DNA from: Antedon mediterranea
Taxonomy: Eukaryota > Animalia > Echinodermata
Length of the DNA: 64,000 nucleotides
Direction of reading: 5' to 3'
Assembly (NCBI RefSeq): GCF_964355755.1
Contig: NC_092677.1
Span: 1,014,101 to 1,078,100 of the forward strand
The notes beneath the pieces were generated by a model, which saw nothing but the letters and a program-made list of their open reading frames with translations, made no database searches and was not told the DNA's origin. Shown piece after piece: positions 2,800 to 50,016 of the stretch (positions are counted from its first letter, which is position 1; each line of letters begins with the position of its first letter). The translations under genes and the position numbers were made by a program.

Positions 2800-4406
2800 T
2801 TTTTTTTTTTTTTTATTCAATTTCCAGGTAACATACAAAAATCATAAACAAGGTACGGCATCATTCAATAAAACAGAACAAAAGTACTATCAGCACCTGC
2901 GGGTAACCAAAAGTGGATCAGTTCAAAAGAACTACACTGTCGAGTGGCTTTCCCAACTAATAGTACGAAAAACGCAATAGACATAAAAACACAGAGATAG
3001 TCTAGATGAATTCGATATCAGTAATACATTTTTTCAAATCCCTTCTAAACCCCACAAAGTTAAACAGGACTTTGTTACGAACTTCATGCGGGATACATTT
3101 CCATATTCGAGGGAAATTAACAAACAGGGAGTATTTAAATGCATTAGTTCTAGCATACATGTGTATGAACCATATCTGGCAAATTTAGCGTCTTAAGCCT
3201 GTCAGTGAAATCGCCTTCAACACACAATTTAGTAACCCGTCTTAATGACTTGTTAATAGCTATATTATGTTGTTTTTGATGTGGATCCCACACAAGAGCA
3301 CCATATCCAATAACAGGTCGACATAGTGAATTAAAAAGTCGTAGTAAAATTTCGGTGTCATTGAAACCTACAAACCGTTTGATAAACCCAAGCATTCTCA
3401 TAGATTTCATCGATACATCATTAACGTGAGCAGACCATTTTAAATCACGTGAGAAGTTAATACCAAGATATGTATGTGAATTAACAGCTTTAAGGGGATT
3501 GGATTCGATTGTATAAATAAAATGAGGGATATAATTACGTTTCCTAGTTATGTGCATGACTTTACACTTCTTTGCATTTAATTTCATTTTATTATCCTCA
3601 CACCATTTGGAAATTTTACAAAGATCCTGTTGTAAGGTAAGTGCATCATGACGACTGAATACAGGTTTATAAATTACTGTATCATATCTGCATACTGCTT
3701 CATAACAGAAGAGGTATTTAGAGGTAGGTCATAAACAAAGAGATTGAATAGAAGCGGGCCTAACACTGATCTCCGAGGAACACCCGAGCCCACTCTATCC
3801 CAATCAGAATGCTCCTTATTAAGAACAACACGTTGGAATCTGTCACTGAGAAAAAGGAGTGAAGACACTTTAGGAGAGATCCACATACTCCCATTTTGTG
3901 CAGTTTCTTGATTACTAAATCATGGGGAACACGGTCAAAGGCCTTCTTCCAATCAAGGAATATTGCATCAATTACAGGAGGTTGTCTAACATCCATTGTT
4001 TGTGACCAACCATGATATAACGCTGAGGCCTGTGTAATACACGATCTACCTGGATAAAACCCGTGTTGCATGGGACTTATAAATCCAAAAAATTGAAGAT
4101 GAAAAAGAATGTTATCTGCTATAATACGTTCAAAAACCTTACCTATAATAGAACATAGCGATATGGGTCGATAATTATTAACATCATTACGATTACCTGA
4201 CTTAAAAATAGGAGTGACATTCGCGAGTTTCCAATCTTTTGGTACAAAGCCATCCGTTAAGAACTTGTTAAACATTTTGCACAACACTGGGGCAATAATT
4301 GGAGCTGACATGGATAATATTTTAGGTGTAATCCCGTCAGGTTCAGGGGATTTGTTGGGTTTCAAGGACAATAGAGCCTCGAAAATAGTTTTTTCAGTAA
4401 TATTAA
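2800..4406 (-). mobile_element. Degenerate 5'-truncated CR1-clade LINE (reverse transcriptase, frameshifted)
   Basis: Overlapping minus ORFs 3760-4371 (KSPEPDGI, YRPISL, QHGF, LDWKKAFDRVPH), 3674-3886 (GVPRRSVLGPLLF, YADM) and 3150-3587 (KLNAKKCKVM, YLGI); poly-A tail seen as a T-run at ~2800-2814. Confidence 0.92.
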
Positions 4407-4449
4407 TACGCTTACGTCCTTGCGTTGCGTCCTAGTGGGAACCAAGCTT
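4407..4449. mobile_element. Right end of a MITE (TIR ...CTAGTGGGAACCAAGCTT) interrupted by the CR1 LINE; left part at ~2735-2799
   Basis: Same sequence as the intact MITE at 29042-29203 (GCGATGGATTAT...CGCTTGT on the left, CCTTGCGTTGCGT..TAGTGGGAACCAAGCTT on the right). Confidence 0.7.
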
Positions 4450-7631: not shown

Positions 7632-10600
7632 ATGGAAATATACAAGCTTACAACATTTCTCTTGACAATCGAACTATGTGATAGTGAGAAAACATTTATT
7701 TTCTATAAGAAAATCAAACTGAAAAATGTCATTAAAATATGTTATTATCTTTCCTTTAATTGTATACCGTACATAATTATAAAAATATACTGTAATAACT
7801 TTGACGCCAGTGGTTGATCCAAAATTCTGAAAACAGCACACCTTTTTCTTATCCCCATAGGCCTATTGTGAACCCAGTGCAGAATTGTTGATTTTTTAAA
7901 TACATATTTTTAATTAAAAATGTATAATTGACAGCAATTGCGCATTTAGATAAAGATTAATATCATGCGTATTCTATTTCAGTTATAAATAGTCAAACTT
8001 CCCCGGTAGTCAATGTACAAGATGCTATTGTAAAATTAGGTGAGAATGCTGTTATCATATGTGATTACACACTCACTGGTACAAGAACTCTTGTTGCTGC
8101 TCAATGGTACAATAGCACATCAGCAGGAGATAGGTTAAACCTTCTTGTTAATAGTGCTATAACAAATCCAGATGGTAGATATGCAGTTGATACCTCACAG
8201 ACTGATGTAGTTACTCTCACCATTGCAAACACAGTGTTGTCTGATGATGGATACTATCAATGCAGAATTGTTGATTCACCTAATGCTGAAACCGGTGAAC
8301 ATTTTGGAAAACTTAATGTTCAATGTAAGTATTTACACAGGGTCTCTGTTCACAAAAACTTCTCAATATTACATTTTAGACAGGGTCTGTTTAGAATCTC
8401 AAAAACAATGAGCCTCAACAAAAATGTCTCAATATTACACTTAAGAAAAGTTTTAGTTGGGAGAAATCTGAAACAAAAACCCCCTATAACGTAATGTTGA
8501 GAAGTTAATCCGGGTCTCTATTTCCGAGATTTTTTTTAAAACCCTATATGATGCTATATGCATTATCATGATGTGGTGTACATTATTATGAACTTTTTTT
8601 TAATCACATTGAAATAAAAAAATAAAGACCATATTAGAAATAAGCTGTTTCAGCTTATGGGTTACCCTGGTATGTTGTTCGAGTACCGAATAAAACAAAC
8701 AAATAAAGAATAAGAAGAAAAGCCGGGCTGCACTGAATTTTTGATTTACCGGTGAATGATCGGCACTTTTCACGCTGCTGCTCTAGCCCGCTATGTTCCA
8801 TTAGGACTACTCAATCAGAAGCTAAAGCAAGTAGCAGTTATAGTTCTAAGGACAGACAGTTTTGTGAAAATGGAAACTCCACTATAATTTATTGATTCCA
8901 GCTGCTACAGTTGTAGACCCAAAAAACGTCTGGGAAAGAGTCTATTAGGACATGTCATGCTAAAATTACAAATCCCTAAGCATTTCTGGTATATTCACTG
9001 TCAGATATTCATTGAATTATTATCAAAACAGTCCATTAAAGTTTGTGTTTGTAATAGGATACTTCACAATTGAAATATCTAGGGTGATGAAGTGACCCCC
9101 AGATTTGACCTTAGCAATAAAATTAACTAAAGTGACAGAAATTGAGTATTCACTTCTGTAACAAAAAAATAATATTTATTCACATATAAAAAAAGAAAAG
9201 AAACCCAAAAACCATTGTCTGACAGACAATTTAAGTATTTGTTGCTTTAAATTACATTTTTTTTAAAATGACACATTCAAAAACATTTGAAATAAAAATA
9301 TTTTTCAATATGCGAGCAGCGTTTTTTGTAAGAAATATTTCTTGTTTAACCCTCCTCCAAAAAAAAATATCATTGATCGATGGGTATCATTTTTTTCCTT
9401 CAAATATCCATCTTTACAGTCAGTTCCTGCTCCATCCATATGATAATAATAAATAACCGAAAGCTACAATTTTCTGAAAAACAAAGTAGGCCTACCCATA
9501 GCTGGATTTTTGAGTGCGACAGAGCAAACATATTCCTATACCTGTGGTGGCTCAAAATACCCCCAATTCGAATTCCTGGATATGACTTTTAACGGGTCGT
9601 GTGTGTTATATTTATCACGTACAACCATCTGTTAAAAGTCATTGACATAGTCCATAAAGCTTAACATGATAATAAATATTGTGTCTCATGTTCCTCCCAT
9701 GTTCCTTTTTTACAGATTTTGAAAGCAGTAGTAGTCTTACGATTGGTGTAAATAACAACATCACTGCACAGAATGTTATAATCACATGCTCTGGTAATGT
9801 AGTTGGCAATCCAGTTCCTGATATAAACCTCTATAGAGATAGCCCTATTATTCTAACACAGACAACATTGCCTCTAACATACACAATAGCTACTGTGTCA
9901 GAGAATGATGGAGGAATCTATAGATGTGAAGCAAACAATACTGCTGGAACTGTGACAAGTAATACTAATTTAACGCTTACTTACTGTGAGTACAGAACTA
10001 TTAACACATTTAATTAAAATGAAACCACTAAACAAATAATGTAATAAATGTTTATTTCTCTCATCAAAGAAGGACCGGTTTATAAAACTAATGAATATGT
10101 ATGTTTAGGCCTATAGGCTATGTTAAGGTAGATTTAGCAAATTAAGTTAAAAGTAGTTTATCATTATTATGCACTGTACTACTAAACCATTGAACAGCTT
10201 TAAGTTTTTATAATATTACATTTAGGACATTTCTTGGTCTTCGACTCTGAAGTGTCATTCAGGTTCCCTCTTTTAACATTGTAGAAAAATGTTATATTTG
10301 TGGTGCTTATTTATTACAAAATCAAAATTTCACTCAAATGTTGTGGTACTGCTCATGTTTAGGTTTACCTTTATTTCATATAATGAGACGCCTTGTTTAT
10401 AATATTTATGATATATAAAAAACTAGAGGGTACTCCGAGAGTACAAACCTCCGCCTACTGTAAAATTCCCCTACATAAAATGCCCCCTGAATATTTTTTT
10501 TTTACATTTTTAGTCGCGTGGAAGCGACTCTATAGTTCACTATGTCGGTCGGTCGGTCTGTCTGTCGGTCTGTCTGTCTGTCTGTCTGTCGGTCTGTCTG

Positions 10601-13600
10601 TCTGTCGGTCCGGTATCACTATGCGTTTTATCGCTTTCTGACCTTATCTTGATATCAGTTTAATCTAGCTAGGTCAATTTTTAACAGTATATTCCTTATG
10701 GCCAGGAATCAATGTGGTTATGTTTTCACGGTGCGCAATAAAAAATTACGCGGTCTACGCACGATTTAACGAAATCACGTTTGTAATCATATCTTCACAA
10801 CCATGAATCACAATTAAATAAAATTTGGTACTCATAAATTTCAGGGCATAAATCATCATATGGCAATACAATTACGTGCGTAGCGCATGTAACGCATGCG
10901 TACGCGCGCTTAACATTTTCAAAATTTATTTTCGATGAAATAAGAGTACATTTCAGGCAATTTTAAGCGTTTACAAAATTGCCATGAGTGCGCATATTTT
11001 TGCGCGCGCACTGCGCGTTAAATGTTGTTGCGCACTCTTTTTGCCCGATTTCTGTTTTCTTGACTTACTTTTCAACTCGAAATTACGTTATACGAGCACG
11101 TCGAAAGTGACAGGCTACGCACGTGTAAATTTAAAAAAAATAAATGTTTTTAAACATTTCAACATTTTTAAACATGTTCAGTAATTTCGGTCAGTATAGT
11201 TCACTATGTCGGTCGGTCTCTCTTGTCTGTCTGTCGGTCTGTCGGTCTGTCTGTCGGTCTGTCGGTCTGTCTGTCGGTCTGTCTGTCGGTCTGTCTGTCG
11301 GTCTGTCTGTCGGTCCGGTATCACTATGCATTGTAGCACGCGACTTAATGGCTGTTGGCCTTGTTTTTTATTAGTTCTAAGTGTAAATATGTTAACTGCA
11401 CACTACAAAGTTGTGGATGACAGTGTGGTGTAATGGATATGTATCCAGCCTCTCACTCCTCTCAGTTGAGATCGCTGGTTCAAGTCCCACTGAGGGTTTT
11501 TTTTTTTAATTATTTTTTTATTTCTTTTGTTTTGTTTTTTGTGAACCTTGATCTTTAACCACAATTATATGATGTGTCATTGATCATTGTGGCTAAGTTT
11601 GGTGAGAATCAGATCAAAACTGTGGTCTCTAGGCAGTAAAATAGTTTTTTGTTAGTTGTGACCTTGACCTATGACCTTTTCCCCTCAAATTCAAACTCGT
11701 CCGAGCTTTTTGGGCATAGATCATTGTGTCCAAATTTGGTTAGAATCGGATAAGAACTGTGGCCTCCAGGCTGTTCACAGACACACACACAAACACACAC
11801 ACAAACACACAAACACACACACACACACAAACATACAGGGGTGAAAACATAACCTCCTTGGCGGAGGTAATTAGTTTTAAACCTTTTAACTGAAAGTTAC
11901 GTGTTGACAAAATGAACAAGATACGTAATGGTATATAATAATAATCTATATTTTGAGATAATGTTATATAGCCTACGTGTTGTAATTATATTAGAAATTT
12001 GACAATTTTTGTTTTCTCAGTATACGTAAAATTTTACCGTAAAAGATTGAATAAAAAAATAAAGCTATTCTTTTCAGATAAACCAATATTTGAACAATAT
12101 ATATATACTGTTGGACCCGATGAGAAATATGTTATCACAGCTGATGTTAACGCCAACCCTCAAGATGTGACGTATGTTTGGAGCAGTGATGATGTTAATG
12201 ATACAGATACAAACCCTGCAACATTCACATTCATTGCGTCATCAGTGGAAGACAACACAATTTATGAAATATCAGTAATTGCTACTAATCTTATTGGATC
12301 AATTACAAAGACAATGTGGATCGCAGTCTCAGGTTGTTATTCATTATTTATAGTTCTGTATCGGAAGTTCATAATATAACAACCAACATTTTTTTTTATT
12401 AATGTATTTCCTTTCAACAAACACGTAAGAAAGGTCCGCCGAAATTATGGCAACAAACAAATCATCATACAATTACATCATCATCATAAAAGATAGAAGA
12501 AAAGCATCAACGACGCATTATGTGCATTAGATAGGACATAAATGTTTTACATTCCAAATAGGGCATATCAGTATTTACCCACGTTTTAGTCTGGTAATAT
12601 ACTCTATAAGATAAAAATGTTCCGTTTTTTAGCTACAAACCAGATTGAATCAACAAATTCAGCCAAAATCACAATACCAAGTATGGGTAAGAAGAGATAG
12701 TTAAGGATCACTCAATATGTTTTTAAGTATTAAATACTTATATTATTTAATTGCATTTATGCTTTTTATTCTTCAAAGTCAACACACAGCATTAGTTTAT
12801 TACAAATGCGGAAAATGTCATAATATCTATAAAACAAGTCAATAATAATCTATGAGATTTGTGAGTAATAAGCTCAGTGCTGTTTCATATCGTATGGTAA
12901 CATGCCCACACACACACAACATTTACTGTGTCACTGTCCAACACTAAATACCTAAACAACCCTCTAAACTAAATAATCTCTCTCACTATAGAAATTGCCT
13001 AAAGGTATTTAAAAGAGACAATGTAGAACGTAAAGTGGGAGAAATGATTTATAGTCAGGAGACACGAAACTGCAGGTGTTTTTAATGTATCATAATGCCG
13101 TACGCAAATCGATTGAATAAACCTACAGTACTTAAGTATCCCACTAAAAAATTATTTTGACGCACTATTTGAAGTTAACTAATTGGTATAGTTCATTTGT
13201 ACTAATTTACATTTATGTAACTTTTTACATTACTTTTCAGAGAAAACAGTTGAACCGTGTAATAGCAATACAGGGCTGATAATTGGAATGCTCTTTGTTG
13301 GCATCTTCATTGGTGCCGTAGGATTGTATATTGGATACATTATTCACAATAAGATAAAGAAGGTATGTTGGATTTATAATTCCAAAACTGGTGACAATAT
13401 TCGAATGCTTAAGGACCACATCAATACGTAGAATTCTGCTTATTGTTCAATTTACACAGCCAGGGAAGGGGTGAGAGTAAAGAAAAACTATATTCCACTT
13501 TTAATATTAACTGTCACATAATTATACTTTATGTGAAAAAATGTACATAAATCACATTAACTGACATACATTATGATCAGAATACTACAATATATTACTG

Positions 13601-14045
13601 TAATTTATACTTAGAAGTCACTGGCAGAGAAACAAGACACAGACAAAAAGAAACAAGATGTAAGTATTGATCTGTGAAATACAATCTAAAGATGACAGAC
13701 AAAACGATTTAAATGATATATCACAATTGTTTGATTAATTTCGGCAAAACTTAAAAAATAAACTATTAACTAAAGTGATTTGGTCTAATTTGACTCCCGA
13801 TTAAACGTATTGTTAAACTCTTTGGTAGTAAATTATTGTATTAGTTTTAGAGTTTTGCACTTTATTTATTGCCACAAAGAACAATACTTTTGTAATTTTA
13901 ATTTGCTTTTTGGTAGACTTACATGGATTACGTAGGAGACACTGGCGAGCAAAACCAAACCTATCAAGACTTACAACATAAAGAAGAAGAGTCAGCTTAT
14001 GTTAATGTTAAGGCTGGAAATAAGAACAGGAAGGGGAAAGTGTGA
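7632..14045 (+). CDS. IgSF type-I receptor A1: leader, V-set, C2/I-set, Cys-less Ig/PKD-like domain, S/T stalk, TM, ITAM-like tail
   Basis: Exons 7632-7683, 7983-8324, 9716-9985, 12078-12332, 12633-12686, 13241-13362, 13615-13659, 13917-14045; all GT-AG, phases compatible, open frame. V has C..W..DDGYYQC; TM GLIIGMLFVGIFIGAVGLYIGYII; tail TYMDY..TYQDLQHKEEESAYVNVKAGNKNRKGKV*. Confidence 0.88.
10507..11368 (-). mobile_element. DINE-1/HINE-like element with (GTCG/GTCT)n microsatellite
   Basis: Terminal hairpin TAGTCGCGTGGAAGCGACT, tetranucleotide arrays, end GGCCTTGTTTT; same family at 28150, 53287 and fragments at 27560, 52700. Confidence 0.7.
11420..11495 (+). mobile_element. Degenerate tRNA-derived (SINE-head-like) fragment
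   Basis: A-box TGGTGTAATGG and B-box GGTTCAAGTCC followed by a T-run; no clean cloverleaf. Confidence 0.45.
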
Positions 14046-15930: not shown

Positions 15931-18900
15931 ATGGCAATATACAGACTCACAATTGTCTTCATTATTCAACTATGTGATTGTAAGTACATAATACATATTT
16001 TTCTCCATAAAAGGATCCCACAACCAAATTTATGTACTAATATGTTATTATGTTTGATTATCAAATAATAAATAAAACTTAAAAGATTGTTTGGACAATT
16101 CGTTATGGGACAAATATTTTATAAAATAGCTGTATAGTTTATCACATGTTGTAAATTCCAGTCAAGTGAAGATTTGATCCAATTATAAAATTTGTAAATA
16201 AAAAATTGTACAATTAACAATTGCAAGTTTCAATATAATAATAATCTAAATTTTGTGTATTCTATTTGAGTTATAAATAGTCAAACTGAACCTGTAGTCA
16301 ATGTACAAGATGCTAATGTTATATTAGGTGAAGACGCTTTTATCACCTGTAGTTATACACTCAGTGATGCAAGAACGATTATTGCTGCTCAATGGTACAG
16401 TAGCACATCAACAGGAGATCAGTTAAACCTTCTTGTTAATAGTGCTGGTACAAATCCAAATGGTAGATATACAGTTGATATCCCCACAACAACTGCTCAA
16501 GCTACTCTCACCATTACAAACACAGTGTTGTCTGATGAAGGATATTATCTATGTAGAGTTGTTGATTCACCTCATGCTGAAACTGGTGAACAGTTTGGAA
16601 AACTTAATGTTCAATGTAAGTATATAAATTAACATGGCAATAATAGGCCTAAGCTAAGTGTTCAATGTAGTAAATTGATTAATGTGACAATATTAAGCTA
16701 TTGTGAATAAATAATTACAAATTCAAGTCTTATAATGATTTACTTGCTGGTCCTATGTAATTCGTTCTTTCAATGAGCAATTCATATTATAGTTAAAGAA
16801 CTGTTAACGTTTGATGAGCAATAATCAGTTGTCTGGATTCTAAGTGGAATTGAAATATATTTGATATTATTTGAGTTTGTACATTTTATTATAGTTGGTC
16901 AACCTCAACCTGTAGTGAATGTACAAGATACAAATGTTACATTAGGTGAAGATGCTGTTATCAGCTGTGAGCACACGCTCAGTGGTTCAAGAACACTTCT
17001 AGGTGTTCAATGGTACAATAGCACATCAACAGGAGATAGGTTGAACCTTCTTATTAATACTTTTGCCACGAATCTAATTGGTAGATATACAGCTGATACC
17101 TCGCAAACTGGTGTAACTACTCTCACCATTGCAAACACAGTGTTGTCTGATGGTGGATATTATCTATGTAGAGTTGTTGATTCGCTAACTGAAAATGGTG
17201 AACATTTTGGAAAACTTAATGTTCAATGTAAGTTTGTATTGTTCCCTCTGCTGATTGTTTGCAGTAGGTTATTATATCACCTAATTTTGGAATTCATTTC
17301 ATCTCTCTTACAGATATTGATGACGTTATTATTGATATCGATTCATATACTAATCCCTCATTCACAATGACGTGTTCTGGAAATGGTAATCCTGTTCCTA
17401 AATTAAATCTCTATCACGATGAGACTACTATAGTAACTGGTACAATAACAATACTAAGATACACACAAAGTAAAATAACAGAAGATGACAATGGAAACTA
17501 CAAATGTATAGCTAGTAGTACCGCTGGACAAAAGGAAAGTGAATTGATAGAACTAGAATACTGTAAGTAAACATTTTATTATTAATAGCTTATCCAAGAT
17601 GAAAAGTGCAGATGATCAACACACTGCTTTTAAGTATCTGGTATGAAGAAGCATTGCTGCCTTCGCATAGTTAGTAATTTTTAATCACTCCTGGAGGAAA
17701 TATATAGATATCTATATATTTCCTCCATGCATCAAGTTCTGAGATAAGGTCCTAAAATAAAAACAAATAGATCGATACTATACTGCTTGATGCATGATGT
17801 ATGCGTTATGATAAACCTTTCTATCTTCTTTAGATAAACCTGTTTTTGATTCCCTTATGAATAAAAAAGCCTCTTCTAACGAAAGTGTTATTTTTTAGAT
17901 TGAAAACCTATCATACAATCCTAATGACGTCACTTACAAATGGACAATTGATGACACAGAAATTGACTATGAAGATGGTAACCCAACATTAGAATTCACA
18001 TTGCCAGTTATGGAATATACAATAACGTTGAATGTGACCAATAGCATTGGATCCACGATAGACTCTACGACATGCACAGTTCAAAGTAAGTTATGATGTT
18101 TGAATCATTGAATTATATCATACATATTACTATCACACATACTCATAACGTTCTTGTAGTCCGATATCCGTACGCAAATGTTTAATACAGATGTATTTAT
18201 AGTGATGAGAAACATATGATACCGGTAGTGCTTAAAGCGATTCATGGGTATTATTATCTTGAATCAAATATGCCTCATTTCTGAGTTACCACATACTTTT
18301 ATAAAGTTTGTTGTTGGCTTATTGTATTTTATTTTTGAGTCACAGCCGATCTATTTAAACCCTGCGAATGTGAAGAAACAACAGAAGAAACAGGCAACAA
18401 CAGCCCAGGTTTACTCATTGGAATGTTCTTCGTTGGAATATTCATTGGTGCCCTTGGATTGTCTATTGGATTGTTTATGTATACAAAGACAACGCAGGTT
18501 TGACATCGATAGTTTTTAATTGTAAAATTGAATCTACTAATTTGCATAATAGTTTAAAGATTAAAGTAATTTGAGCAAAATCAAACTTTTACATAATATA
18601 AGGTTGTAACGTTTCTAAAACACTCTTGACATTTGTATCTAGAAGCAAACAACTAACAAGGAAAAAACGGAAAAGAAACAAGATGTAAGCATTCGCATTT
18701 ATTTTTAAATAATTTCGTCAATTACTTAGAAATTTGCAAATAAAGACGCCATTCTTTGTTATTCTATCTTTTATATTTAATGTAATATTTGGTGTACTTT
18801 AAAATTCTAGCTAACTTTATTGAATTGATTTATCTTGTCACAGACTTATATGGAGTATACTGTTGAAAGACCTACTGATGGGGAAAACCATACCTATCAA

Positions 18901-18978
18901 GATTTACAACATAAAGTTGAGGAATCAGCTTATGTTAATGTTAAGACTGGGAATAGGAACAAGGGTTTGAAAGTGTAA
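15931..18978 (+). pseudogene. IgSF receptor A2: leader, two V-set exons, C2/I-set, third-type domain with in-frame TAG, TM, ITAM-like tail (pseudogene, secreted form or exon-skipped form)
   Basis: Exons 15931-15979, 16271-16615, 16895-17227, 17314-17562, 17834-18085 (TAG at 17896-17898), 18346-18497, 18643-18684, 18844-18978. Tail TYMEY..TYQDLQHKVEESAYVNV..LKV*. Confidence 0.78.
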
Positions 18979-22443: not shown

Positions 22444-25400
22444 ATGGTGATGATATTTCATTCTGTGATAATTTACCTGATTTTCCAGCAGTGTGATCGT
22501 AAGTACCGTACTACATATTCAAGAGGGCAAAAAAATACAACAATAAATCCACATCCTCAGACAATAACCGTAAATAGGTCGAGAAAGGTTAGACTAAAAA
22601 TATAGAATTTATTATTTAATCAACATTTTTATAAGCTTTATTATTTATCAATATTAATGACTAACATGCTGTTTAAAGTAAGTTTACCATGAGGCTATGG
22701 ATCACAAATACAAAGGAAATACTACATCTGTTCAATATAATTAAAGCACATTGACAACTCAAGTCAAAGATTTGATGATTAACTTTTGACAATTTTTTTT
22801 TTTATCAACAATAATATTCTATTTCAGTTACAAACGGTCAAACCTCTCCAGTAGTCAATGTACAAGATGCTACTATTAAATTAGGTGAAGATGCTGTTAT
22901 CATCTGTAGTTACACACTCACTGGTTCTACAAGAACACTTTTTGCTGTTCAATGGTACAATAGCACATCAACAGGAGATAGGTTCAACCTTCTTATTAAT
23001 AGTGCTGGTACAAATCCAAATGGTAGATATACAGTTGATACCTCACAAACTGGTGTAGCTACTCTCACCATTGCAAACACAGTGTTGTCTGATGATGGAT
23101 ACTATCTATGTAGAGTTGTTGATTCATTTGTTGAAACTGGTGATCATTTTGGAAAACTTAATGTTCAATGTAAGTATTCATTTACATTTTAAATGATCTA
23201 CCGTATTAGTTTGTTTTGTATTTGGTATATTTTTATACTAGAAATATTTTTATATGTTCTTGTTCGAGGGGAATAGTTTTCGTGTACTTTCTGACCTGAA
23301 ACAAATAAAAATAAAATCAACCAGACACAGATTTGGAATTCTAACTCCAAACGTTTCGATATTAGGATTGCTGACAATAATATTTCGTTTGGCTAAATGT
23401 ATTAAACAGAAAGGTCTACGTCAGAAATATGTTAATATTTTTTTTAGATAATGTATTGTTGCGGTATTATCACTATAGTTTTTAAATCAATTTAAAGTTA
23501 TTCGACTTAATTAGCGAACATTGTATATTAATGTTCTGTCTTTATCTTTGCAGACTTTGACAGTGGTAGTAATCTTGCAATTGATGTCAATAGTATAACC
23601 ACTCCACATAATGTTATAATCACATGCTCTGGTTTTATAGATGGCTCTCCAGTTCCTTATATAAACCTCTATAAAGATAACAATATTATTAAAATACAGA
23701 ATTCATTACCTATGATATACATGATAGCTACTGTGTTAGAGGATGATGGAGGAAACTACAGATGTGAAGCAAATAACAGTGTAGGAAGTGTAACAAGTAA
23801 TACAATAACACTCGATTACTGTAAGTACTATAACAAACTTTAAAATCAATCTCATTAAATTTCTTTTCTCATTATTTTTAATGAGTTCTATTATTGACAA
23901 CATTAAACAAGGTTGGTATATTAGGTATTTGCCTTTACAGTATGTACTGTTGTTAAATGTGCATGGTTATGACTATCAACAGAACAACAATTATATGTAT
24001 TTGAAGAATCTAGTGTTAGTATCTAATGATAATTAGACTACCATTCAAGTTTATCGCCTTTATTATGCCTAAACAAGGTTGGATATTTGACTTTAGAGCA
24101 TTGGCTATGAGGTACTGTTATTTTCAACTTAACTCTTAATAAACCGAATGGCCTATGATAATTCTTGCTGCTTAGAGTATCACTGTAATTAAACGAACAA
24201 TTACATGTAATTATGCTTGTCTTTAATATTCAGGCTATATCAATTTCCCCCCAGATTTAACTGGTACTATCACCATTCGTTCCACTTCTAATGATACTAC
24301 TATAGTATTCAACTGCTCTGGTTCAGTTGACGGTAATCCATCTCCTGACATAATCCTTCACAAAGATGGTGATATCATTCGACAACAATCTACATTACCT
24401 ATAATATACACAATAAGCAGTCCAACAGAGAGTGATGCTGGACACTACATGTGTGAAGCTAATAATACAGCTTTCTCTACTAGAAGCAGTGTATTAGAAC
24501 TGTGTAAGTACCTGATACAATTTGTGTTCGGTTTTCCGAAAGCGAAAATAAAAGTGTTATTATGCCAAATCATAATGATGGTTAAAAAAAATGAATTCAT
24601 TAAATAAAGACAAATAAATTCAGCAGATCATTCACAAGTAAATCTGCGTCTAATGAGAGCAATTTACCACTCTGAACCAGAATTTAATACTAAATGGATT
24701 TTAAAACGTACATTTTTTCCAGATCATTTATTCTTTTTTTTTTAAACGGAATTTGAATATTTGGATTGTTTTTTTTATCATATCACAGGTTTTACAAAAT
24801 AGTTTAGAAAAAGGGGTATTAATAAAGCTATTTTTATCAGATAAACCAATTCTTGAAGAAAATACTGTTGGACCTGGTGACAACTATGTCGTCACATTTG
24901 ATGGTGAAGCTAACCCTCAACAGGTAACTTATGTTTGGAGCATTGACGGCGTTGTGGATCCAGATGCAAATTCTGCAACATTCACGTTCACTGCATCAAT
25001 GGAAGTTGGCACAGTTCATGAAATAACAGTGATAGTTACAAATCTTATTGGGTCAACTTCTAAGACAATACGGATCACGGTCTCAGGTTGATATATACTC
25101 AGTTTATATTAAGGTCCAAGCTCAATAATCTGACCATTATAAGTGCATACAGAAAACAAATATCAAAATGAATTGCAATGGCCTAATACGATTTAACAGT
25201 ATTATTTAAGATAAATTTGCAATGATTTGTTAATGTTTTTCATTTAGCTACCAATATTGAATCAACAACAAATTCAGCAAAAACCACAATGCCATCTACC
25301 GGTAAGCAAAAGTAGTTTTTATGCTTTTTAGGCTTTTCTTATTTAATTGTGAGTGTGTTTTTATTTCATCATAGACACAAAGCATTTTGTTTAAAACAGA

Positions 25401-26436
25401 TGCGGCTAATTTTACAATATCATATTCTATTAGATAAGACCTATAATAACCTATTCGAATTTATCAAAATAATCTATTTCTAAATACTTAGTTGAAGTTG
25501 AATAAAGACTAATAAGCCTATTACAATTCAGTATAAATTATAATCCCTGTTGATACAATAATACTGCTAACCTTTATATACATATAAAACGTACTTTACT
25601 TTTCAGAGACAACAGTTGGGCCCTCCAATAGCAATACAGGTCTGATCATTGGAATGCTCTTTGTTGGTATCATCATTGGTGCCGTAGGATTTTATATTTG
25701 GCAAATTATTTACAATAAGATAAGGAAGGTTTGTTAGATTGTAATGATGACTTTAATATAATATATTTGTAATTATAAAACATGCAGACTATGAGTCCTT
25801 ATGCCATACAAAGTAATATAATGGCAATTCATGCATTCTAGCAAAAGATGCTTTGAATTCGACTACAAGCTTTACAACACGTCACAATGTCCGTTATTGT
25901 TTGGTTTCAATTTACAAAATTTACCTTCGAGTAGAAGAGATAAGGTTATGAACACTTACATCATTATCCTTAAAATATATTGCAATAAATGGAGTTGAAA
26001 GATACATGTAATGACATGCAGAGTAATAACATCATTTTGTTATTCTTTATTTAGAAGTCACTGTCAGAAAAACAAGACACAGACAAAAGAAAACAAGATG
26101 TAAGTATTGATCTATAGGCTAAATACAATAAAGATGAATAACAAAACGATTAAATATTCAATTAAATAAAAAAATGTTTAGTTTTACAAAAACTGCGAGA
26201 TTCATTTGGTCGTGGTAGACAAACATCAATAGAATGTTAAAATACAAAAACAAGAAATGACAATTACAGGCCCTTATAAGTTTACAATTAATGTATTTAC
26301 TTGCCAGACATACATGGATTATGTAGGAGAAAGTAGCGGGCCAAACCAAACCTATCAAGATTTACAACATAAAGTAGAAGAATCAGCTTATGTTAATGTT
26401 AAAGCTGGAAATAAGAAAAAGAAAGCGAAAATATGA
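22444..26436 (+). CDS. IgSF type-I receptor A3: leader, V-set, two C2/I-set, Cys-less Ig/PKD-like domain, stalk, TM, ITAM-like tail
   Basis: Exons 22444-22498, 22828-23169, 23554-23820, 24255-24503, 24841-25086, 25248-25301, 25607-25728, 26055-26099, 26308-26436; open frame; tail TYMDY..TYQDLQHKVEESAYVNVKAGNKKKKAKI*. Confidence 0.88.
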
Positions 26437-28669: not shown

Positions 28670-31600
28670 ATGTACATTGTCTGCGTGTTGTCCTGTATAA
28701 TCTCAGCTGTTGGTAAGTACCACATTAATAACAACAACTAACGTATTCCATTATTCTTAGTATTCTTAAATATAAAAGCAATGTGTTTATTATGATAAAG
28801 AATTTCAGTCTAGAATTTATACTGACATTAAATAAACAAATAAGGATAAATTTAATCTAATAAATTAAAAAAATAATATCATCACGATATCCAATCATTA
28901 TCGTTTGCTAGTTGCCGTACAAAAGCTTACTTTTAAGCTTGGTTCCAATCAGAAAACGCAAGGACGTGGCACAATGTATCGACAAAATTTCTAGTGGGAA
29001 CCAAGCTTCATGACCAAGTGCATGATTCCGATGTCATCCTTAAGCTTTGTTCCTAATAGAAGCGCAACGCAAGGACGTAAGCGCAACGTAAGTAATTTGA
29101 CCAATCACAAGCGATGGATTATGTGAACTTTCGCTTGTTATTGGTCAACTTGCTTGCGTTGTGTCTACATCCTTGCGTTGCGTCTCTAGTGGGAACCAAG
29201 CTTTATGGTTCACCATTTACACTGCCTTTGCTGTTGTTGTCACAATCATTATTTTCATTTTAAAATTGATATTGTTATGAATACCAATATTTTACCTTGT
29301 CATTGACCATAGTACCCTTGACTGTTGCGCTAGAGGTTACAATAAGTGATGTGCAAGAATTTCCCGAGAATTCAGACGCGTTACTGGCTTGCGACTACAC
29401 ACCAACCGGTGCAACGGGGGTTGATATATCGTGGACACGAGTTAATGCACAGAGCGACATTATTAATTTAGTAGTACGAAGTGAAGTGGTTGATGAATTC
29501 AAACCACGTATGGAACTCCAGGTTTCTGATAATTTCCAGGGTAACGCTGGTTTAATAATTCATAATGTCACTAGAGAGGATGCTATGTCTTACGTGTGTG
29601 CAGTATTCTCTACTAGTGATGGTCAAGAACAAGGAATAACTACTCTACAGATACAATGTAAGTATTATCAATGCCCAATGAACACTAAACTGGTATTTTA
29701 CAAACCGTAAAAACACAGTAGTACTGTAAAGAATCTTTAACCTAATATTTGATAATACTTGGATTATAACATTTATAAGTGTGTAAACGGAAGAAACGGA
29801 ACCATTTAATTATATCATGCGTCACGACTTATCAGACCACTATAATCATCTATTATATCATGCGTCACGACTTATCAGACCACTATAATCATCTATTATA
29901 TCATGCGTCACGACTTATCAGACCACTATAATCATCTATTTTTATTATCAGGAATGCTGATTCTATCTTTTTTGTCTACATCATTGAAACTATTTTTGAT
30001 AACTGATAATGTAGTTTAATTGTTTTGAAAATACTTAATAACTTTTATTTGTTGCCTTAACGCAATTGTGCTTGTTTAAAAGTTGCATATTCACACAGTC
30101 GTCAATTGTTTTTTTTTTCAGGGAATTACAAGCCACAAATTACAAGTGATCCAGCTCCATATTCTTTGCAAGTTGGTGACAACGTAACATTTACGTGTTT
30201 ATCTGAAGCCAATCCTACATCAGAAATAGCATGGTTGAAGAACAACGTTACCATCGACATGGATGACAGATTCACAAAGAACGAGAATGCATCTACTCTG
30301 CACATAGATGGTTTAACTCGAGATGATCACGCCCTCTTTAGTTGTAGTTCAAGAAACATTCGAAAGGAAATCTTGAGTGATCAGATTGAACTAAATATAG
30401 AATGTAAGTGCAGTATACAAAGTAAAACATAATTTATTGTAACCATGTAAATCCTGCAGACACTGAAGACATTTATATGGCACTAAAAAATCTTAAAAAA
30501 AACAAACCAATCATTGTCATTGAAGAACAAGATATTGCATGTTCTATTAATCTATGAGATTAAGCTCTAATCCATTCTATTTGGTATTCAATCTATAAAT
30601 CAAAAACTAAATAAAGAAATTAGTAAATACGATAAAAACTACTCATTCTAAACATTAAAATATCACTATCCGTCCCATAGCTATAAATGAATAGTTTGTA
30701 TTTTTGTTATCTCCGGAAGATCAATAATATTGGCTGTTTAATGCATGCTTGCTTTATACCAGATGATCCGCCGTTGAATAATTCCAGATATAATAAAGCG
30801 AAGGTAATTTCCAAAAAGACAGATGCTTCAATTACAATTATTATTTCATTTGATTTCATTTATTGTTTTCGACAAAACGTTCGGGACTTTGAAAGGGAAG
30901 TTCCAGCATACAAATTACAAATATTTATTAACATGATGAAGATACATGTTTTAACAGATAAACCAGAGATGTATTTGAACCAGACTAGCAACAAAGTGGA
31001 ATGCACCAGTGACGCGAATCCAGCAGTGTATCAGTACGAGTTTGAAGTAGACGGTAAAGTAGTGAGGACAGCAGACGACGCAGTGTACGAATTGAAGGGA
31101 ACTGAATGTGTTAATATCACGTGCTTTGGTACTAACAAAATAGGAAGAGGCAACGCATCGGATATCGTGTGTCCTCTGTGTAAGTTTATACTGCCTAAGT
31201 ATCATTTAGTATCTACATTCTATTGGCCTAGATTCCAATTCTAATCGACGGCTACTCGATATTGATTAATTAAATTTAATCTTCTTATTTATAAGCAAAT
31301 ACTAAATACATAGATAAAACATTATTCAGAGTGTAAACGGAACAATGTTATTATTGCACTTGCACCACCTGATTGATCAGACTGTTATAATCATTTATTA
31401 TTGTACTGAATGCCAATTCTATCCTTTTTATCTTCATTATTTTAAGTAGCTGTTAATGCTTTTGTTTGTTTGTTGCTTGTCAGTTGCTTCAAAACACAAT
31501 TATGCTAGTTTAAAAGTTGCGTTCACACAGTCTTCAATTGCATTTTTAGGGAATTACAAGCCACAAATTACAAGTGATCCAGCTCCAGATTCTTTGCAAG

Positions 31601-33259
31601 TTGGTGACAACGTAACATTTACGTGTTTATCTGATGCCAATCCTACATCAGAAATAGCATGGTTGAGGAACAACGTTACCATCATAGAGATGGATGACAG
31701 ATTCACAAGGAACGACAATACATCTATTCTTCACATAGATGGTTTGACTCGAGATGATCACGCCCTCTATGGTTGTAGTTCAAGAAACATTCTAAAGGAA
31801 ATCTTGAGTGATCAGATTGAACTAAATATAGAATGTAAGTGCAGTGTAGTAAAACATATTGTAACCAAGATAAGGTATATGAATTGAAAGGAGCTCATGA
31901 ATGCGTTAATATCACGTGTTTTGGTACTAACAAAATAGGAACGAATAACGCATCGGGTATCCGTTCGTTGTCCTAAATGTAAGTTGATAGGCCTCTATTG
32001 GTTCACATTTAGAATTTAAAGATTCTATAGATTCCAAATCCAATCAACGGTTAATATTAATTAACTAGCCTTAAAGCCCTTTTGGCTTATTTATGTTTCT
32101 CCGGCATAAGTGCATTCTACATAAAAAAATAACTGTCATGTTATTTCACAATGATGTATCTTATGAAAATAAAATTGAATTGATTTGAATTATTTCGTTA
32201 TTATTATATAATAAATAATTTATTATGTTTTATTATTTATTATTATTATATTATATTTATTAAATTTTTATTTACTTTTTGGAAGAAGTGGGAGAGGGGT
32301 TAGTTAGAAAGTATATCGAAATCAAACATTCTGAAAATATAAATATTGTTATTATTATTAACTGGCAATTTGTTTTTATACTTCAATGTAGGAAATATTT
32401 TTACCGTTTGTCAGATAATTTAAAAAAAAGGTGTATATGTATGTATGTTAGCTTAGGTCTACTTATAAAAAAAGTAGTATAGTATATACACTGGCCTAAC
32501 AATATTTTTTTTTCGGCAGGTGAATGTCTAACTGTTGAATGGCCGACAGTTTATCCAGAGCCAACAGTAGAAACATTGAGTTGGAAGACAAGACTGGTCA
32601 TCGTGAATGTTTGTGTTGGAATGCTAATTGGTGCCATTGTAATGTGTATTGGAATGTTTGTCTATAACAGATGTTATATAAGAGGTTTGTCGCTTTATAT
32701 TTAGACGTATTTTGGTAACACGTCAATGTTTATTTTAAAACATTCATGTCTCATGTGAAAGGTAGATACATAATTCACTCCCATGTTTACACAAATGTTT
32801 ACTAAATAATTGTGTTTGTTACTATTCTGTTGGTATTTGATATATTTTATTACCTAGATACATTTTGTCTTTATTTTTAGAAAACACGAAAACGAAAAAA
32901 CAAGACGTAAGTGTTAAAATATTGACTATTGATTGTTTTTATAAATAATTGCCAACAAAGAAAAAAAATAATCATGTTGATTTTAATTGGAGAAGGTTAG
33001 AAACGTATACCTTTGAATATTGACAAAACAAAACAACAAGGAAGTTTCCGTGAATATTATTTATGGCTCAGCCTGCTAGCCTATTATTATTTATAATAAT
33101 GACATTTGAACTTTCGTATTTATCTTGCAGATGTATATGAATTCCATAGTAAACGACTCCGACAAAGACCATTATGACGACTTACAAAACAAATTAGAAA
33201 TGCCGGCTTATCACAGTGTTATTAGTATGATACAAAGTTCTGTCTACAAAAATGTGTGA
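28670..33259 (+). CDS. IgSF type-I receptor B1: leader, V-set, I/C2-set, short Ig, duplicated I/C2-set, Cys-containing stalk, TM, four-tyrosine tail
   Basis: Exons 28670-28712, 29313-29657, 30122-30403, 30958-31179, 31550-31834, 32520-32684, 32881-32906, 33131-33259; open frame; tail MYMN..HYDDLQNKLEMPAYHSVISMIQSSVYKNV*. Confidence 0.87.
28934..29203. mobile_element. Two adjacent MITEs with AAGCTTGGTTCC../..GGGAACCAAGCTT terminal inverted repeats
   Basis: Short copy 28934-29008; full ~160-bp foldback copy 29042-29203. Confidence 0.75.
29809..29940. repeat. 43-bp intronic minisatellite, 3 copies (4 copies at 55253-55430)
   Basis: Unit ATTATATCATGCGTCACGACTTATCAGACCACTATAATCATCT. Confidence 0.9.
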
Positions 33260-37733: not shown

Positions 37734-37747
37734 TTTGACAAAATTGT

Positions 37748-44297: not shown

Positions 44298-47200
44298 TTG
44301 TAAGTGTGTATACTCGAACTAATGTGACAGTGAGTCCTGCTACATTCAATGTTGGTGAAGATGCAACAATGACGTGTACATATACACTTGAACCAGGAGA
44401 TGTGTTAGCTGGGTTAGCATGGTTCAAAGCAAATGGAATTGGAAATCAAGATGGGTCAGTACTTGTATCTACGGGAAGTACAGTCAGTGGTCGATACAGT
44501 TTATCCAGTAATAACCGTGATCTTATCATTACTAATGTTGAAGTCAGTGATGCTGGGAACTACTTGTGTAGAATTACATTGGATGTTACCTTTGCTAATG
44601 TTGAAGATTTTGAAATGATGTCAGTTGATTGTAAATAAACATTCCAACCAAATTACTTAATTATCTCAATATTTATTTTTTAAATAATTTTGATATTGAA
44701 AATGTGTGTAGTTGGTCGCTTTCTTGTAGACGCTTTTATTGTAGAACGTAATTTATTTATTTTTTCTCTGTTCTGGGTTGACCAACTAGCATAGGTGTTT
44801 AGCACCTGTTTGGTCTTTCCGTGCCTCCTTTTCTAATTGATTTGTCTTCTTTGTTTATGTATATGGCAAATTGAATAAATAAATTCATTAAATATTATTT
44901 ACTACATACTCTTACTTAATGAATGTATTAATAAATGTTACCCTATTAATTTAATTTATTATTTATTATAACATTTATTTTATTTTTATGTTTTTTTATA
45001 TCAAAGGTTAAATTATATGATTTCTATTTATTCAAACAATAACCAGCTTGTGCTACTCAACAAAGTTTCTGATGTACATATACTTCAATACTTCAATATA
45101 TAATTCAATAATTTCCCTCATCAAGTTGTTTTTACCAAAAAAAAGAAGAAAAGGTAGATGAAAAAGACCGAATAAATTGGAAGATCAGTAAAACATTTTA
45201 TAGTATGATACAGTACGGTACATTATATCTTATTACAGATATTAATGGTAGTCTTGCAATTGCTGTAAACTCTAATACCACAGCAGAGGATGTTATCATC
45301 ACATGTACTGGTATTGTAGATGGAGACCCAGTTCCTGAACTAAACCTGTATAGAGATAACAATATAATTAAAACACAGAGTACATTACCTCTAACATACA
45401 CAATAGCTACTGTGGCAGAGAATGATGGAGGAATCTATAGATGTGAAGCAAACAATACTGCTGGAACTGTGACAAGTAATACAATACAGTTTCATTACTG
45501 TAAGTGTGTTCAGTTTTGGTAAAGTTAGTTTCCTTTCATGTTGCGTTATTATCTATAAGAATGAGTTATCATGATTTAATTTGAAAAAAAAAACCCTGTC
45601 TTAATGTCATTTAAACAAAATTGTTCTGCAAATGACAACTTCCCCCGGGGAAGACATGACGTGTCTTTGCCCATATTTTCTCATCTTTTTCTAGTTAAAT
45701 AGATTCAATTATTTTATTTTGAACTAATAGCGTTTCACTTCATAGCAGTATAATCAACATATGTTGTTTTAAGGTGTTGATTATACATTGTTTAATGGTC
45801 GCTCCCGAGTATCAATGTTCTTCAGAACGTTAATTCCAAGAGTGCTAGACTAGTACAGTACTAGTATATTAAATATGTCTGTTGCATATTTTATTTGAAC
45901 AAAAATGCAACAATGTTTACATAATTCCTCGTATACGTATGATCATGAATTTATGTCAATTTTTATCTCTTATTCATCTTTGTTAGCAAACTAATTGTAT
46001 TGGTAGGATGTTTAATTACATGAATTAATTCATTTAAAGTGGCTTAGGTTCTATCCTGGCCTAACTTATTTTTATTATTTTATGTTTTTCTGTACGTAGC
46101 TGTTGTGAAAACCACAGTGTTGTTTTTAGTAATTAGTAAAGGATAATTATATCCTTTATTTATTTTGTAGATTTAAACGATATTGTTACAATTAGTTATA
46201 CTTCTAACAATACTACTATCGTAGTCACGTGTTCATGTTCAATTTATGGTAATCCATCTCCTGGTATAAACCTTCACAAAGATGATGATATCATTCTGCA
46301 ACAATCTACATTACCTTTAATATACCCAATAAGCAGTCCAACAGAGAATGATGGAGGATATTACACATGTGAAGCTCATAACACAGCTTTCTCTACAAGA
46401 GTATTAGAATTGTGTAAGTATAAAATACAAACTTTACTTGATAAAGAACGTATCTAAACAGCAAATTCACAATTGATTTAAAATCTCTATCTTTAAAGAG
46501 TCTTGAAAAATTGAAATTCTGAAATAGGCCGATGAAAAAATGGATTTAAAGTTTCACAAATACAAAATTAGTTGACAGAATGAATTAAACAACTGTTTCA
46601 AAGTAAATTTTTGATATAAATGATATATTTTCAGATAAACCAAGATATGAGACAACAGAACCAGGTACTCTTAAACCTGGAGAACAGGGTACGATTACAA
46701 TGGAAATTGTTGAAGCCAACCCTCAAGAGGTGAATTATGTTTGGAGCATCGACGGTGTTGTGGATCCAGATGCAAATTCTGCACCATTCCAGGGGCGCAG
46801 CCAGCAAAGGATTAAAGAGGGGGTCAACCAATATGTGAGTATTTTGCGAGCGAAGCGAGCAACCATGGGCTGGGGGCCAGGGGGCCGCCAAGGGCCCTTG
46901 GTTGGGGTCCAGGGGGCGAAGCCCCCTGGAAGCTTTGGCGGTCTAGGGCAATCTAGATCATTTGAATCGGTTTACGCACACACAAATATGACAATGTTAA
47001 CACTAAAAAACTGTAACAAAGAAAACAAAAAACAACTCTCATTTTCATTACAGAACATTTTTATATTCCAGGCTGCCACAGACAAACACTTTTTTTCTTG
47101 CTTGTTTGTTGATTTGTGTAGAGAGGCTGTAAACTCAGAGGAGGAATTATTTGAATTCCTCCCTTTTCACCAATACAAAAGTTGCATGAAATGAACGTAG

Positions 47201-50016
47201 AGATGCAAAAGTTTGAAAAAAGAAATTAGAATGATAGCATGGAGGGAGTGATATTATTAAATGAGAACCGTAAGGTTAGAGTTCATACACTGTGCAAGTC
47301 CAAGAAGCTATCTTAGCTCCGTGTTTATGTGAGACGCTTATCATACCCAGTACATACAATATTTTGTTTAAAAATATACCTATTTTGTTCGAATGTATAG
47401 TATAGGTGATAGCTTATACATAATTGTAATAACTAACTTCTAAATTATTATCATACATTTTACGTTAGTTACTATAACGGCGCTCTTGACATCGCGTGAT
47501 GCATCTTTAAACATAAGTTTGGAACATACATTCTTCTTGGCTTGGAGACAGAATTCGCGAATGACATTCTCTGTATTAATGTTCATGTTAAAGTGTATGT
47601 TCATGAGGCACAATCCCAAAAGCTGCTCATAAGACATGTGATTTCCCAAACAGGTTTTTTTCTCCATAAAGTCGAAAAACTCAGACGTTACGGGCATAGG
47701 CCTACGCGATTAGAAGAAGTGCACGCACATTCGGGAACACATCTGGATCCGCTAATTTTACACAGTCGCTTCCATCACTGAAGCTCGGAATGAAGATGTT
47801 CGTGTCTTGGCAGATCATCGTACCAAATTCAAGTTCCTTGAAGACTTCTTCAACATTACACTTCACTATAGACTCGGGTGCTACGCCAAATATTTTAAAG
47901 CATGGCCTGTTATCGGCAGAAAAACGGGTTTTTAACTCGGTTTGTAATCAAGAAGTTGATTTGGTAATACTGCTCGGTAGTAATCTTCCACAGTATCTCC
48001 AGGATGATTTGATCTGTATTGTTGTCTCATGTTTTTATTTATTTTTTCTAAAAAAAAGGGGGGGTCAGGACCCCCGTGACCCCCCCACTGGCTGCGCCCC
48101 TGCATTCACATTCACTGCATCAATGGAAGTTGGCACAGTTCATGAAATAACACTAATTGCTACTAATCTCATTGGATCAACTGCAGAGACAATACGGATC
48201 ACTGTCTCAGGTGTTGATTCATTTGTTTTTTTATTTTAAGAGCATATTATCATGCACCGAACAAAAACAAAAAGTCATTTAATATATCTATTTTACTCTA
48301 ATTTATCAAATCTCTGTGTGTCTGTCCGACTTTATTCAGAGACTAGAGGTCGCTAGGTCAATGTAAAATCTCAACATTCTCAAATTAGGAGCGGTATAAA
48401 GTCAAATTCTTTATTCATCCCACCTGGGGCAATTTCAAAAACAGGACTGAACAATATATAAAAAAGTACTGTATATAGTAAATCATTATAACACAATCAT
48501 CAATCATTTAAACACAACACCTTAAATCTATAACATCTCTTATTCAAAAGGCCCTAGATCAAATAATTTTATTTTTTCGTGACACATAGGACTCCGGTAC
48601 CGATATGCATACAGAGATAACAACCAATTCCATCTATCATGCATTGCTCAATTAAAAATATGTATTATAACTTTGACATTTTAGTTGTATTAAAGATGTA
48701 TTGTTCCCTTGAAAAATTAATTGAAAAAAAACATGTTTTGGTTGAAAATGCCATTTAAATGTCACATAATAGTTATTCACTTTCATAAAAAATTGGATCG
48801 AAAACAATATTTACCTGAAAAAACTGTAAAGAAATAGTCAAATTGGATGTCAGTCAATTGGTTTTTGGTTGAATTTAACCATTTATTTTGTCATTTTATA
48901 AGCGACAACATAATTTTGTTCGTTTTTTTCTATGAAAGTGATTAACTATAATAAATGGCCTATACTTTATTAATCTTCATTTTGCATGTTTTCTGGAGGA
49001 CAATATAAATATATATAAATCGTCATTCACATTAAAATTCGGTATAATTTTAGTTTCGTACATTGTAAATAAAGTGTACATTAATTTCCAGTAGAAAGAA
49101 AACGTAGGGCTTAGAAATATCGTAGGTTTGGTCATTGGAATGCTCTTTCTTGGTACCATCATTGGCTCCTTTGGACTTTATATTGGACAAATTATTTACA
49201 ACAAGATAAGGAAAGTTTGTTAGATTATTTATTAATACTTTACTTTATTGTTTTTATAATGCTAAAACATGCATGTTATACAAAGTAATAATAAGGGCCA
49301 TATTGATTTTTAACTACCAGCAGTATATCAAAAGATTTTGAATTACTTTACAACATGTTAGGATGTTGGTTATTTTAGTTTTCATGAACGCAATCCGTTT
49401 TCGAGAAAAGATGAGGTTATTGGAAAAGGGTATTTTATAAATAGTCTACATTGAATAAAACGAATTCACCTCATTTTCCATTGAAATATTATTGAAATAC
49501 ATACAATATTGAAAGTCTTATGGGATGACAATAGAGTAATGAAATATTAATTAATCTATTTAGAAGTCACTGTCAGAGAAACAAGACAAAGACAAAGGGA
49601 AACAAGATGTAAGTATTGAATACAATCTATAAAGACGATCAACAAAACGGTTTAATTGGTAGAACCATTGAAGAGAAAATATTTCTTTTTTCATTAACGG
49701 CAAAATGGACAATTAAAACTTAAATAGACTTAATGTCTAATTTGATTCTGATTAAACGTAAGTCTACGTTTACAATTCCAAATTATTGTATTAAGAGTTT
49801 AGTACAATTCCTTTATTTACCACAAGAAATAATGGTTTCTGATTTAAGTTAACAATTATTTTCTTTTTTTAACAGACTTAGGCCTACATGGATTATGTAG
49901 TAGACACTAGCCAGCAAAATCAAACCTATCAAGATTTACAATGCAGGCCTAACGAACAAGAATCAGCTTATGTTAATGTTAAGGCTGGAAATAAGAAGAA
50001 CAAAGGGAAAATATGA
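44298..50016 (+). pseudogene. IgSF receptor A5: divergent V-set, two C2/I-set, transposon-split third-type domain, TM, ITAM-like tail; no leader exon found
   Basis: Exons 44298-44630, 45239-45499, 46171-46413, 46635-48210 (hAT inserted at 46790), ~49126-49214, 49564-49608, 49876/49882-50016 (ACT TAG GCC TAC; YQDL-x10-YVNV). Confidence 0.8.
46790..48102 (-). mobile_element. Internally deleted hAT-like DNA transposon inside an A5 exon
   Basis: 15-bp TIR CAGGGGCGCAGCCAG/CTGGCTGCGCCCCTG; apparent 5-bp TSD CATTC; minus ORF 47440-47697 (PVTS..KT.L..MS.E.L.GL.LMNIH) resembles the hAT C-terminal dimerisation region. Confidence 0.85.

Follow-up and report, generated by a model that had tools for sequence, protein, structure and literature searches.

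Immunoglobulin (Ig) receptor families with tyrosine motifs in their tails have been described in Hydractinia (10.1101/2022.03.04.482883), Botryllus (PMC12582321), oyster (PMC6994640) and among the CEACAMs (PMC2832619, PMC5112662). Syk-type kinases are reported in the same accounts of Hydractinia, Botryllus and oyster, and the oyster receptor CgIgR is reported to recruit Syk via its ITAM (PMC6994640). A 2026 review of sea-cucumber immunity never mentions ITAM, ITIM, Syk or Grb2. No description of an echinoderm ITAM-type Ig receptor family was found in the literature searched, which included few subscription papers; supplements of genome papers may list such genes. The 2006 sea-urchin genome papers reportedly list V-type Ig gene families, which may bear on novelty.

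The crinoid family described here was recognised from a 64,000-nucleotide stretch of Antedon mediterranea DNA (the window). It is similar to the activating CEACAMs (CEACAM3, marsupial and Xenopus receptors) in its tandem V-plus-C2 Ig domains and rapid turnover, and the tails are alike in combining an intrinsic ITAM-like motif, lacking the acidic residue at -3, with a Grb2-type YxN (PMC2832619, PMC5112662). As described in these accounts, the CEACAM YxN is a separate site and Xenopus CEACAM ITAMs are split by introns, whereas the crinoid YxN is itself the distal member of the ITAM-like pair, and a single exon encodes the entire motif. The crinoid receptor also differs in possessing a PKD-like domain. 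Putative ties with the CEACAMs consist of automatic "-like" names and a fold match of 19% identity, and a frog CEACAM19-like protein matches the profile weakly (E 4.9e-5). Convergence is the more likely source of the resemblance. The distal tyrosines of LAT (YVNV, YVNV, YENL) provide the same Grb2-family site and the same variants as the crinoid tail (PMC2194190, PMC6669380). However, LAT is an adaptor without an ectodomain, while the crinoid site is located on a putative ligand-binding receptor, beside a YxxL half-site.

Botryllus FcoR, like the crinoid proteins, are Ig receptors of an invertebrate deuterostome with mixed tyrosine motifs, and their core-2 motif [A/D]VYxxV matches AVYVNV of the models P0015-17 and P0027 (PMC12582321). 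Unlike in the crinoid tail, the core-2 motifs are described there as paired, 29-33 residues apart; FcoR are also paired with motif-less Fester genes, and YxNM is reported absent in that account. Hydractinia Alr share with the crinoid family clustered V/I-set receptors, a third non-Ig sandwich and ITAM/ITIM tails (10.1101/2022.03.04.482883), and oyster CgIgR is likewise a single-chain Ig receptor, with an intrinsic ITAM leading via Syk to ERK and phagocytosis (PMC6994640). The Alr and CgIgR ITAMs are canonical according to these reports, whereas those of the crinoid tails mostly are not. Alr tails are reported to diverge more than their ectodomains; the crinoid family shows the reverse, with one tail module in common. 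Overall, the crinoid tail resembles those of known activating receptors, yet it is not a canonical ITAM, a hemITAM or a conserved ITIM.

The exon under study is the genuine spliced last exon of an intact receptor model, A1, and encodes the cytoplasmic tail of a crinoid type I receptor of the Ig superfamily (Table 1). The A1 model is open over eight exons and 422 residues, has AG/GT ends at each junction and reads, in order, leader, V-Ig, I/C2-Ig, PKD-like domain, stalk, uncharged transmembrane segment (TM) and tail; the leader, the V-set and I/C2 Ig domains and the single TM are those of an IgSF type I receptor. The tail exon starts in phase 0 behind an AG acceptor and includes 42 codons and a stop (translation TYMDY...TYQDLQHKEEESAYVNV...stop). 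The NCBI A. mediterranea model P0005 is identical to the last 200 residues of A1; as P0005, P0009 and P0012 probably derive from the same assembly, they lend no independent support to the window models. In the X1 contigs, considered to be RNA by an automated guess, the TM exon is joined to the 45-nt exon at GT..AG and the first tail bases stand directly behind 13659. These contigs inform on splice joints only, expression level and tissue not being derivable from them. Such exon joints were looked for in the DNA-like run X3 and none were present.

A Pfam search with the A1 PKD-like exon itself gave no match. Its homologues in A2 (E 1e-4) and P0045 (E 4e-5) match Pfam PKD below the cut-off, and the homologous domain is all-beta in the structure model of P0008. 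The A1 tail matched no Pfam family and had no relative among solved structures (one match, E 0.39); its Atlas feature scores were 0.79 or lower, and the TM homodimer prediction scored 0.08.

Table 1. Features of the A1 receptor gene and its paralogues in the window
Feature	Position	Strand	Basis or remarks
A1 signal-peptide exon (predicted)	7632..7683	+	resembles A2 leader exon; GT donor, phase 1
A1 V-set Ig exon	7983..8324	+	Pfam V-set E 3e-8; AG/GT ends
A1 I/C2-type Ig exon	9716..9985	+	Pfam Ig_2 E 4e-11
A1 PKD-like beta-sandwich exon	12078..12332	+	homologous exons match PKD below cut-off
A1 Ser/Thr-rich stalk exon	12633..12686	+	included in NCBI model P0005; AG/GT ends
A1 TM exon	13241..13362	+	uncharged, three GxxxG; joined to 13615 in X1 contigs
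A1 basic juxtamembrane exon, 45 nt	13615..13659	+	splice ends; X1 contigs
A1 tail exon, four tyrosines, basic C-terminus	13917..14045	+	translation, splice acceptor, X1 contigs
Membrane-proximal tyrosine pair YMDY	13920..13931	+	Y[MTA]xY in 29/32 genes
YQDL, ITAM-type first half-site (predicted Syk-family SH2 site)	13962..13973	+	Y[QED][DEG][LI] in 31/32 genes
YVNV, predicted Grb2-family SH2 site	13998..14009	+	Asn at +2 in 29/32 genes
A2 paralogue: leader, V, V, C2, PKD-like, TM, tail at 18844	15931..18978	+	C-terminal part = P0012
A3 paralogue, open 509-residue model: V, C2, C2, PKD-like, stalk, TM, tail at 26308	22444..26436	+
B1 divergent paralogue, open model	28670..33259	+	tail at 33131: YMNS..YDDL-x8-YHSV
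A4 broken paralogue	44298..50016	+	tail at 49882, 10-residue spacer
B2, recent duplicate of B1	53809..58726	+	tail at 58631: YMNS..YDDL-x8-YHSV; tail matches P0014

The initial annotation described three copies of this tail, in A1, A2 and A3. The A2 and A3 copies are indeed there, but the window holds six copies in all, A4, B1 and B2 being the others. A2 has an in-frame TAG at 17896-17898, in the PKD-like exon and upstream of the TM exon, which may reflect a broken gene, a short secreted form or skipping of this phase-1/1 exon. One X1 contig splices into the exon, and the contig alignments have no row at 17896-17898 among the matches listed. The last 280 residues of A3 are those of P0009, and its V-to-C2 splice was found in one X1 contig. 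A4 is damaged by an insertion in the PKD-like exon and by a frameshift at the TM exon. The insertion (46790-48102, about 1.3 kb) has 15-base terminal inverted repeats and a 5-base target duplication and is likely a DNA transposon. Behind A4, at 50083-50381, lies a second partial tail end (YVNVM..) that is 96.7% identical to the tail end and 3' flank of A3. On the minus strand, at 43906-44286, an I-set exon of the P0002/P0003 type (62-63% identity) adjoins the plus-strand V exon of A4, which suggests inversion-driven exon shuffling. B1 and B2 lie in segments that are 95.6% identical (26679-38473 and 51873-64000), representing either a recent duplication or an uncollapsed haplotype; in B2 an extra base terminates the tail right behind YHSV. 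Long low-complexity tandem arrays (37412-38541 and 63185-63991) were duplicated along with the B segment. Frames at 842-1579 (+), 3153-4431 (-) and 42814-43092 (+) resemble, as judged by eye, reverse-transcriptase (LINE) fragments.

Relatives were sought by three word-based searches and by a full scan with an HMM profile built on TM plus tail (31 matches). Matches to TM and tail are almost confined to A. mediterranea and Anneissia japonica, which belong to different crinoid families. The tally set consists of 32 genes from these two families: six window copies, 12 further Antedon genes and 14 from Anneissia. Isoforms (P0020-22, P0046-47), models of window genes (P0005, P0009, P0012, P0014), V relatives without a TM (P0002, P0003, P0018), models with a TM and no tyrosine module, which are probably incomplete (P0030-32, P0037, P0044), and the non-crinoid matches P0039 (unnamed), P0040 (frog) and P0043 (sea urchin) were omitted. 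Since all 32 genes were found via tail similarity, conservation is partly built into the set and members with other tails are missed. Of the six tails in the profile, all have Val at +3 and five have Asn, which biases the search toward both.

The tail had been described as having three tyrosines, but that of A1 carries four (13920, 13929, 13962 and 13998). When the A1 tail was shuffled 100,000 times, 151 of the results had the ITAM-like spacing, 5,355 had an ITIM, 33,284 a YxN and 13 all three. The YQDL-x8-YVNV spacing is unlikely to arise from composition, while a loose ITIM (5.4%) or YxN (33%) alone comes cheaply. Within the family, P0026 is the single exception to the first half-site, its proximal tyrosine being lost. 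The spacer between the half-sites ranges from 6 to 13 residues (8 in 20 genes, 6-8 in 21, 9 in eight, 10 in one, 13 in two), and the 8 residues of A1 fall inside the canonical ITAM range of 6-8. The ITAM-like spacing with Val at the final position, noted earlier for A1, is borne out, and further paralogues keep the tyrosines and the spacing (proximal half-site in 31/32, spacer of 8-9 in 28/32). A true ITAM is, however, not a family feature. A1 fails at the canonical second half YxxL/I with its YVNV, and the full form with 6-8 spacing occurs in two of the 32 genes (P0010, P0024). The consensus D/E at -3 of the first tyrosine (PMC2832619) is found in none of the 32, Asn occupying this position in A1. 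The hemITAM consensus [DE][DE][DE]xYxxL (PMC12582321) has no match in the 32 genes either. The PI3K site YxxM (0/32 genes), ITSM (1/32 genes) and the STAT3 site YxxQ (0/20 modules) were rejected as candidates.

At the distal tyrosine Asn is kept at +2, as listed in Table 1, and YxN occurs somewhere in 31 of the 32 tails: B1 and B2 lack the distal Asn but have YMN at the first tyrosine, and the P0033 tail is without any YxN. Position +3 is V in 24 genes, A in four, L in two, S in one and I in one, and +1 is V, I, H, M or E. Asn at +2 is described as essential for the Grb2 SH2 domain and +1/+3 as less stringent, with sites including YVNV, YVNL, YVNA and YENV (PMC3694890); the drift at +1/+3 stays among residues known from Grb2 sites. 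The YVNV sites of LAT are reported to bind Grb2 (PMC2194190), and the YQDL half-site agrees with the opening half of the DAP12 ITAM, given as YQELQ (PMC11335228). Taken together, the distal Asn pattern, the LAT sites and the DAP12 match indicate that the distal motif is best read as a Grb2 site and the proximal one as an ITAM half, so the predicted Grb2-type site gains support from the comparison of paralogues. Its advantage over an ITAM ending in Val is small, aliphatic V/L/I standing at +3 in 27 of 32 genes against Asn at +2 in 29.

The earlier suggestion that the tail reads as ITAM-like, ITIM and Grb2 site at once does not hold, since all three readings use one distal phosphotyrosine. A phosphotyrosine accommodates one SH2 domain at a time, and the three readings are therefore alternatives. 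Charged residues (D/E/K/R) were absent from the TM core in all 25 database models that have a TM. This agrees with the uncharged TM noted for A1: a DAP12/FcR-gamma-type adaptor calls for a charged TM, and an intrinsic tyrosine-based tail appears to be the better interpretation. Polarity had been considered impossible to settle from sequence alone; comparison of paralogues shifts the balance toward activation, short of proof.

As first described, the tail is almost unchanged among A1-A3, the 17-residue YQDL..YVNV core being identical pairwise at 16/17, 16/17 and 17/17 positions. The accompanying statement that the ectodomains diverge needs qualification. Among A1-A3 it fails for the V domains, whose identity of 67-81% is comparable to that of the entire tail exon (67-76%), but it is correct for the C2 (33-62%) and PKD-like (35-63%) exons. 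It clearly applies across the wider family, P0007 and P0019 being 30-32% identical to A1 in V and 93-95% in the tail. The proposed dN/dS check gave 0.29-0.56 for the tail (A1-A4), below the 0.65-1.48 of the V exons (A1-A3), although most single tail tests are non-significant (Fisher p 0.005-0.36).

We favour an activating tail, in which an ITAM half-site for a Syk-type kinase is predicted to be combined with a LAT-like Grb2 site, and consider this account slightly likelier to be right than wrong. A ligand would cluster the receptor through the variable ectodomain, possibly assisted by the GxxxG-rich TM (GxxxG is conserved in the family TM), and a Src-family kinase would phosphorylate the tail. 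The pYQDL site may then dock a tandem-SH2 kinase of the Syk/Shark type, either when two half-ITAMs meet in a dimer or with YVNV serving as a second, imperfect half, while pYVNV would dock Grb2 and lead to Ras-ERK and actin regulators, as in LAT. The signal would probably lead to activation or to phagocytosis, serving defence or the recognition of self and non-self. The evidence that suggests an immune role is the family dynamics: broken copies, tandem genes and swapped ectodomains fit a family of recognition receptors.

The foremost rival, which we regard as unlikely, is a non-immune one: YQDL and YVNV may function chiefly as YxxPhi sorting signals in the unphosphorylated state, or serve Grb2-ERK signalling in growth, regeneration or wiring. 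Both motifs fit YxxL/V, listed as endocytic or ITAM-like (PMC5112662), and a fold search with P0008 ranked adhesion molecules highest, CEACAM6, nectins and Robo among them (14-23% identity), though these matches reflect generic Ig domains. Sorting leaves unexplained the kept Asn, the YxxY pair, the spacing of 8-9 in 28 genes and the tandem modules, and gene turnover together with the higher dN/dS of V exons suits recognition better. Slightly less probable is a tunable tail, in which the distal -2 and +3 residues set the polarity of each paralogue and one module exists in full-ITAM, ITIM-compatible and Grb2-only versions. It is favoured by the canonical ITAMs mentioned above for P0010 and P0024, by a strict ITIM at the distal tyrosine of P0029 and P0036, by Ala/Ser at distal +3 in five Anneissia genes of two subclades and by the report that Botryllus FcoR alternate between ITIM and hemITAM depending on allele and splicing (PMC12582321). 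Relaxed constraint at positions not essential for Grb2 predicts the same variation.

An inhibitory receptor, with SAYVNV as an ITIM recruiting an SHP-type or SHIP phosphatase, seems to us improbable to a somewhat higher degree. SAYVNV of A1 does fit [SIVL]xYxx[IVL], the loose consensus (given as [I/L/V/S]xYxx[I/V/L]; 10.1101/2022.03.04.482883), as do A2-A4, and to this extent the ITIM noted earlier stands. Family-wide it does not: 13 of the 32 genes fit at the distal tyrosine and 19 do not, and seven different residues occupy -2 (S 11, T 7, P 5, A 4, V 2, N 2, Q 1). Ten of those that fit are closely related Antedon genes carrying Ser, which is the weakest permitted residue, and Anneissia fits in only 3 of 14 genes; the frequency of a loose ITIM in the shuffled tails argues in the same direction. 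Counts of an ITIM anywhere (18 loose, 6 strict), which include tyrosines at the TM edge, were set aside. Finally, the similarity might be passive, produced by recent duplication or gene conversion of a TM-tail block with the tyrosines unselected. The flanking introns are partly alignable between A1 and A4 and between A3 and A4, and the broken A4 retains all four tyrosines. Yet the core is unchanged at a synonymous divergence (dS) of 0.28-0.83, and the motif positions persist in two crinoid families despite differing linkers, so we give this explanation very little credence.

Across the family, the tail is found on V-I-PKD, V-I-I, Ig-EGF and FN3 ectodomains, and P0007 and P0008 have a common V domain and differ behind it. 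In a tree built from TM and tail (30 rows), two subfamilies separate with support 100/100. Both species are present in each, so the tail module is older than the split between Antedon and Anneissia. In predicted gene models the module occurs in tandem, four-fold in P0011 and two-fold in P0023, and P0041 and P0042 have repeats of the YxxL half. Chains with several ITAMs exist elsewhere, e.g., CD3-zeta, and the repeats of P0011 and P0023 recall them. Three Antedon models (P0002, P0003, P0018) have A1-type V domains (76-80% identity) and no TM, and may be soluble decoys or incomplete models.

We speculate, while holding it about as doubtful as the leading rivals, that crinoids possess a large innate repertoire of receptors in which V-Ig, Ig-EGF and FN3 ectodomains were shuffled onto one portable tail of half-ITAM plus LAT-type Grb2 site, with module repeats tuning gain and two residues around the last tyrosine tuning polarity, and with P0043 hinting at an echinoderm-wide range. 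If so, receptor, Syk dock and adaptor scaffold would be united in a single chain. Echinoderms are placed between chordates, on one side, and cnidarians and molluscs, on the other, with ITAM receptors described on both sides. The tail recurs in no fewer than 32 crinoid genes, whose natural variants (a full ITAM, an ITIM-like and a Grb2-only form, a four-fold repeat) offer a direct way to test the wiring of Syk, SHP and Grb2 signalling in a deuterostome invertebrate. Should the Grb2 or sorting reading alone prove true, this is an ordinary expanded Ig family.

P0043 of Strongylocentrotus purpuratus, a borderline profile match (E 4.9e-4), is an FN3 receptor whose tail has YENP, several HTYQDL/TYQDL-like repeats and a final YVNV. 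It hints that the tail module is perhaps echinoderm-wide, and either homology or convergence could account for it.
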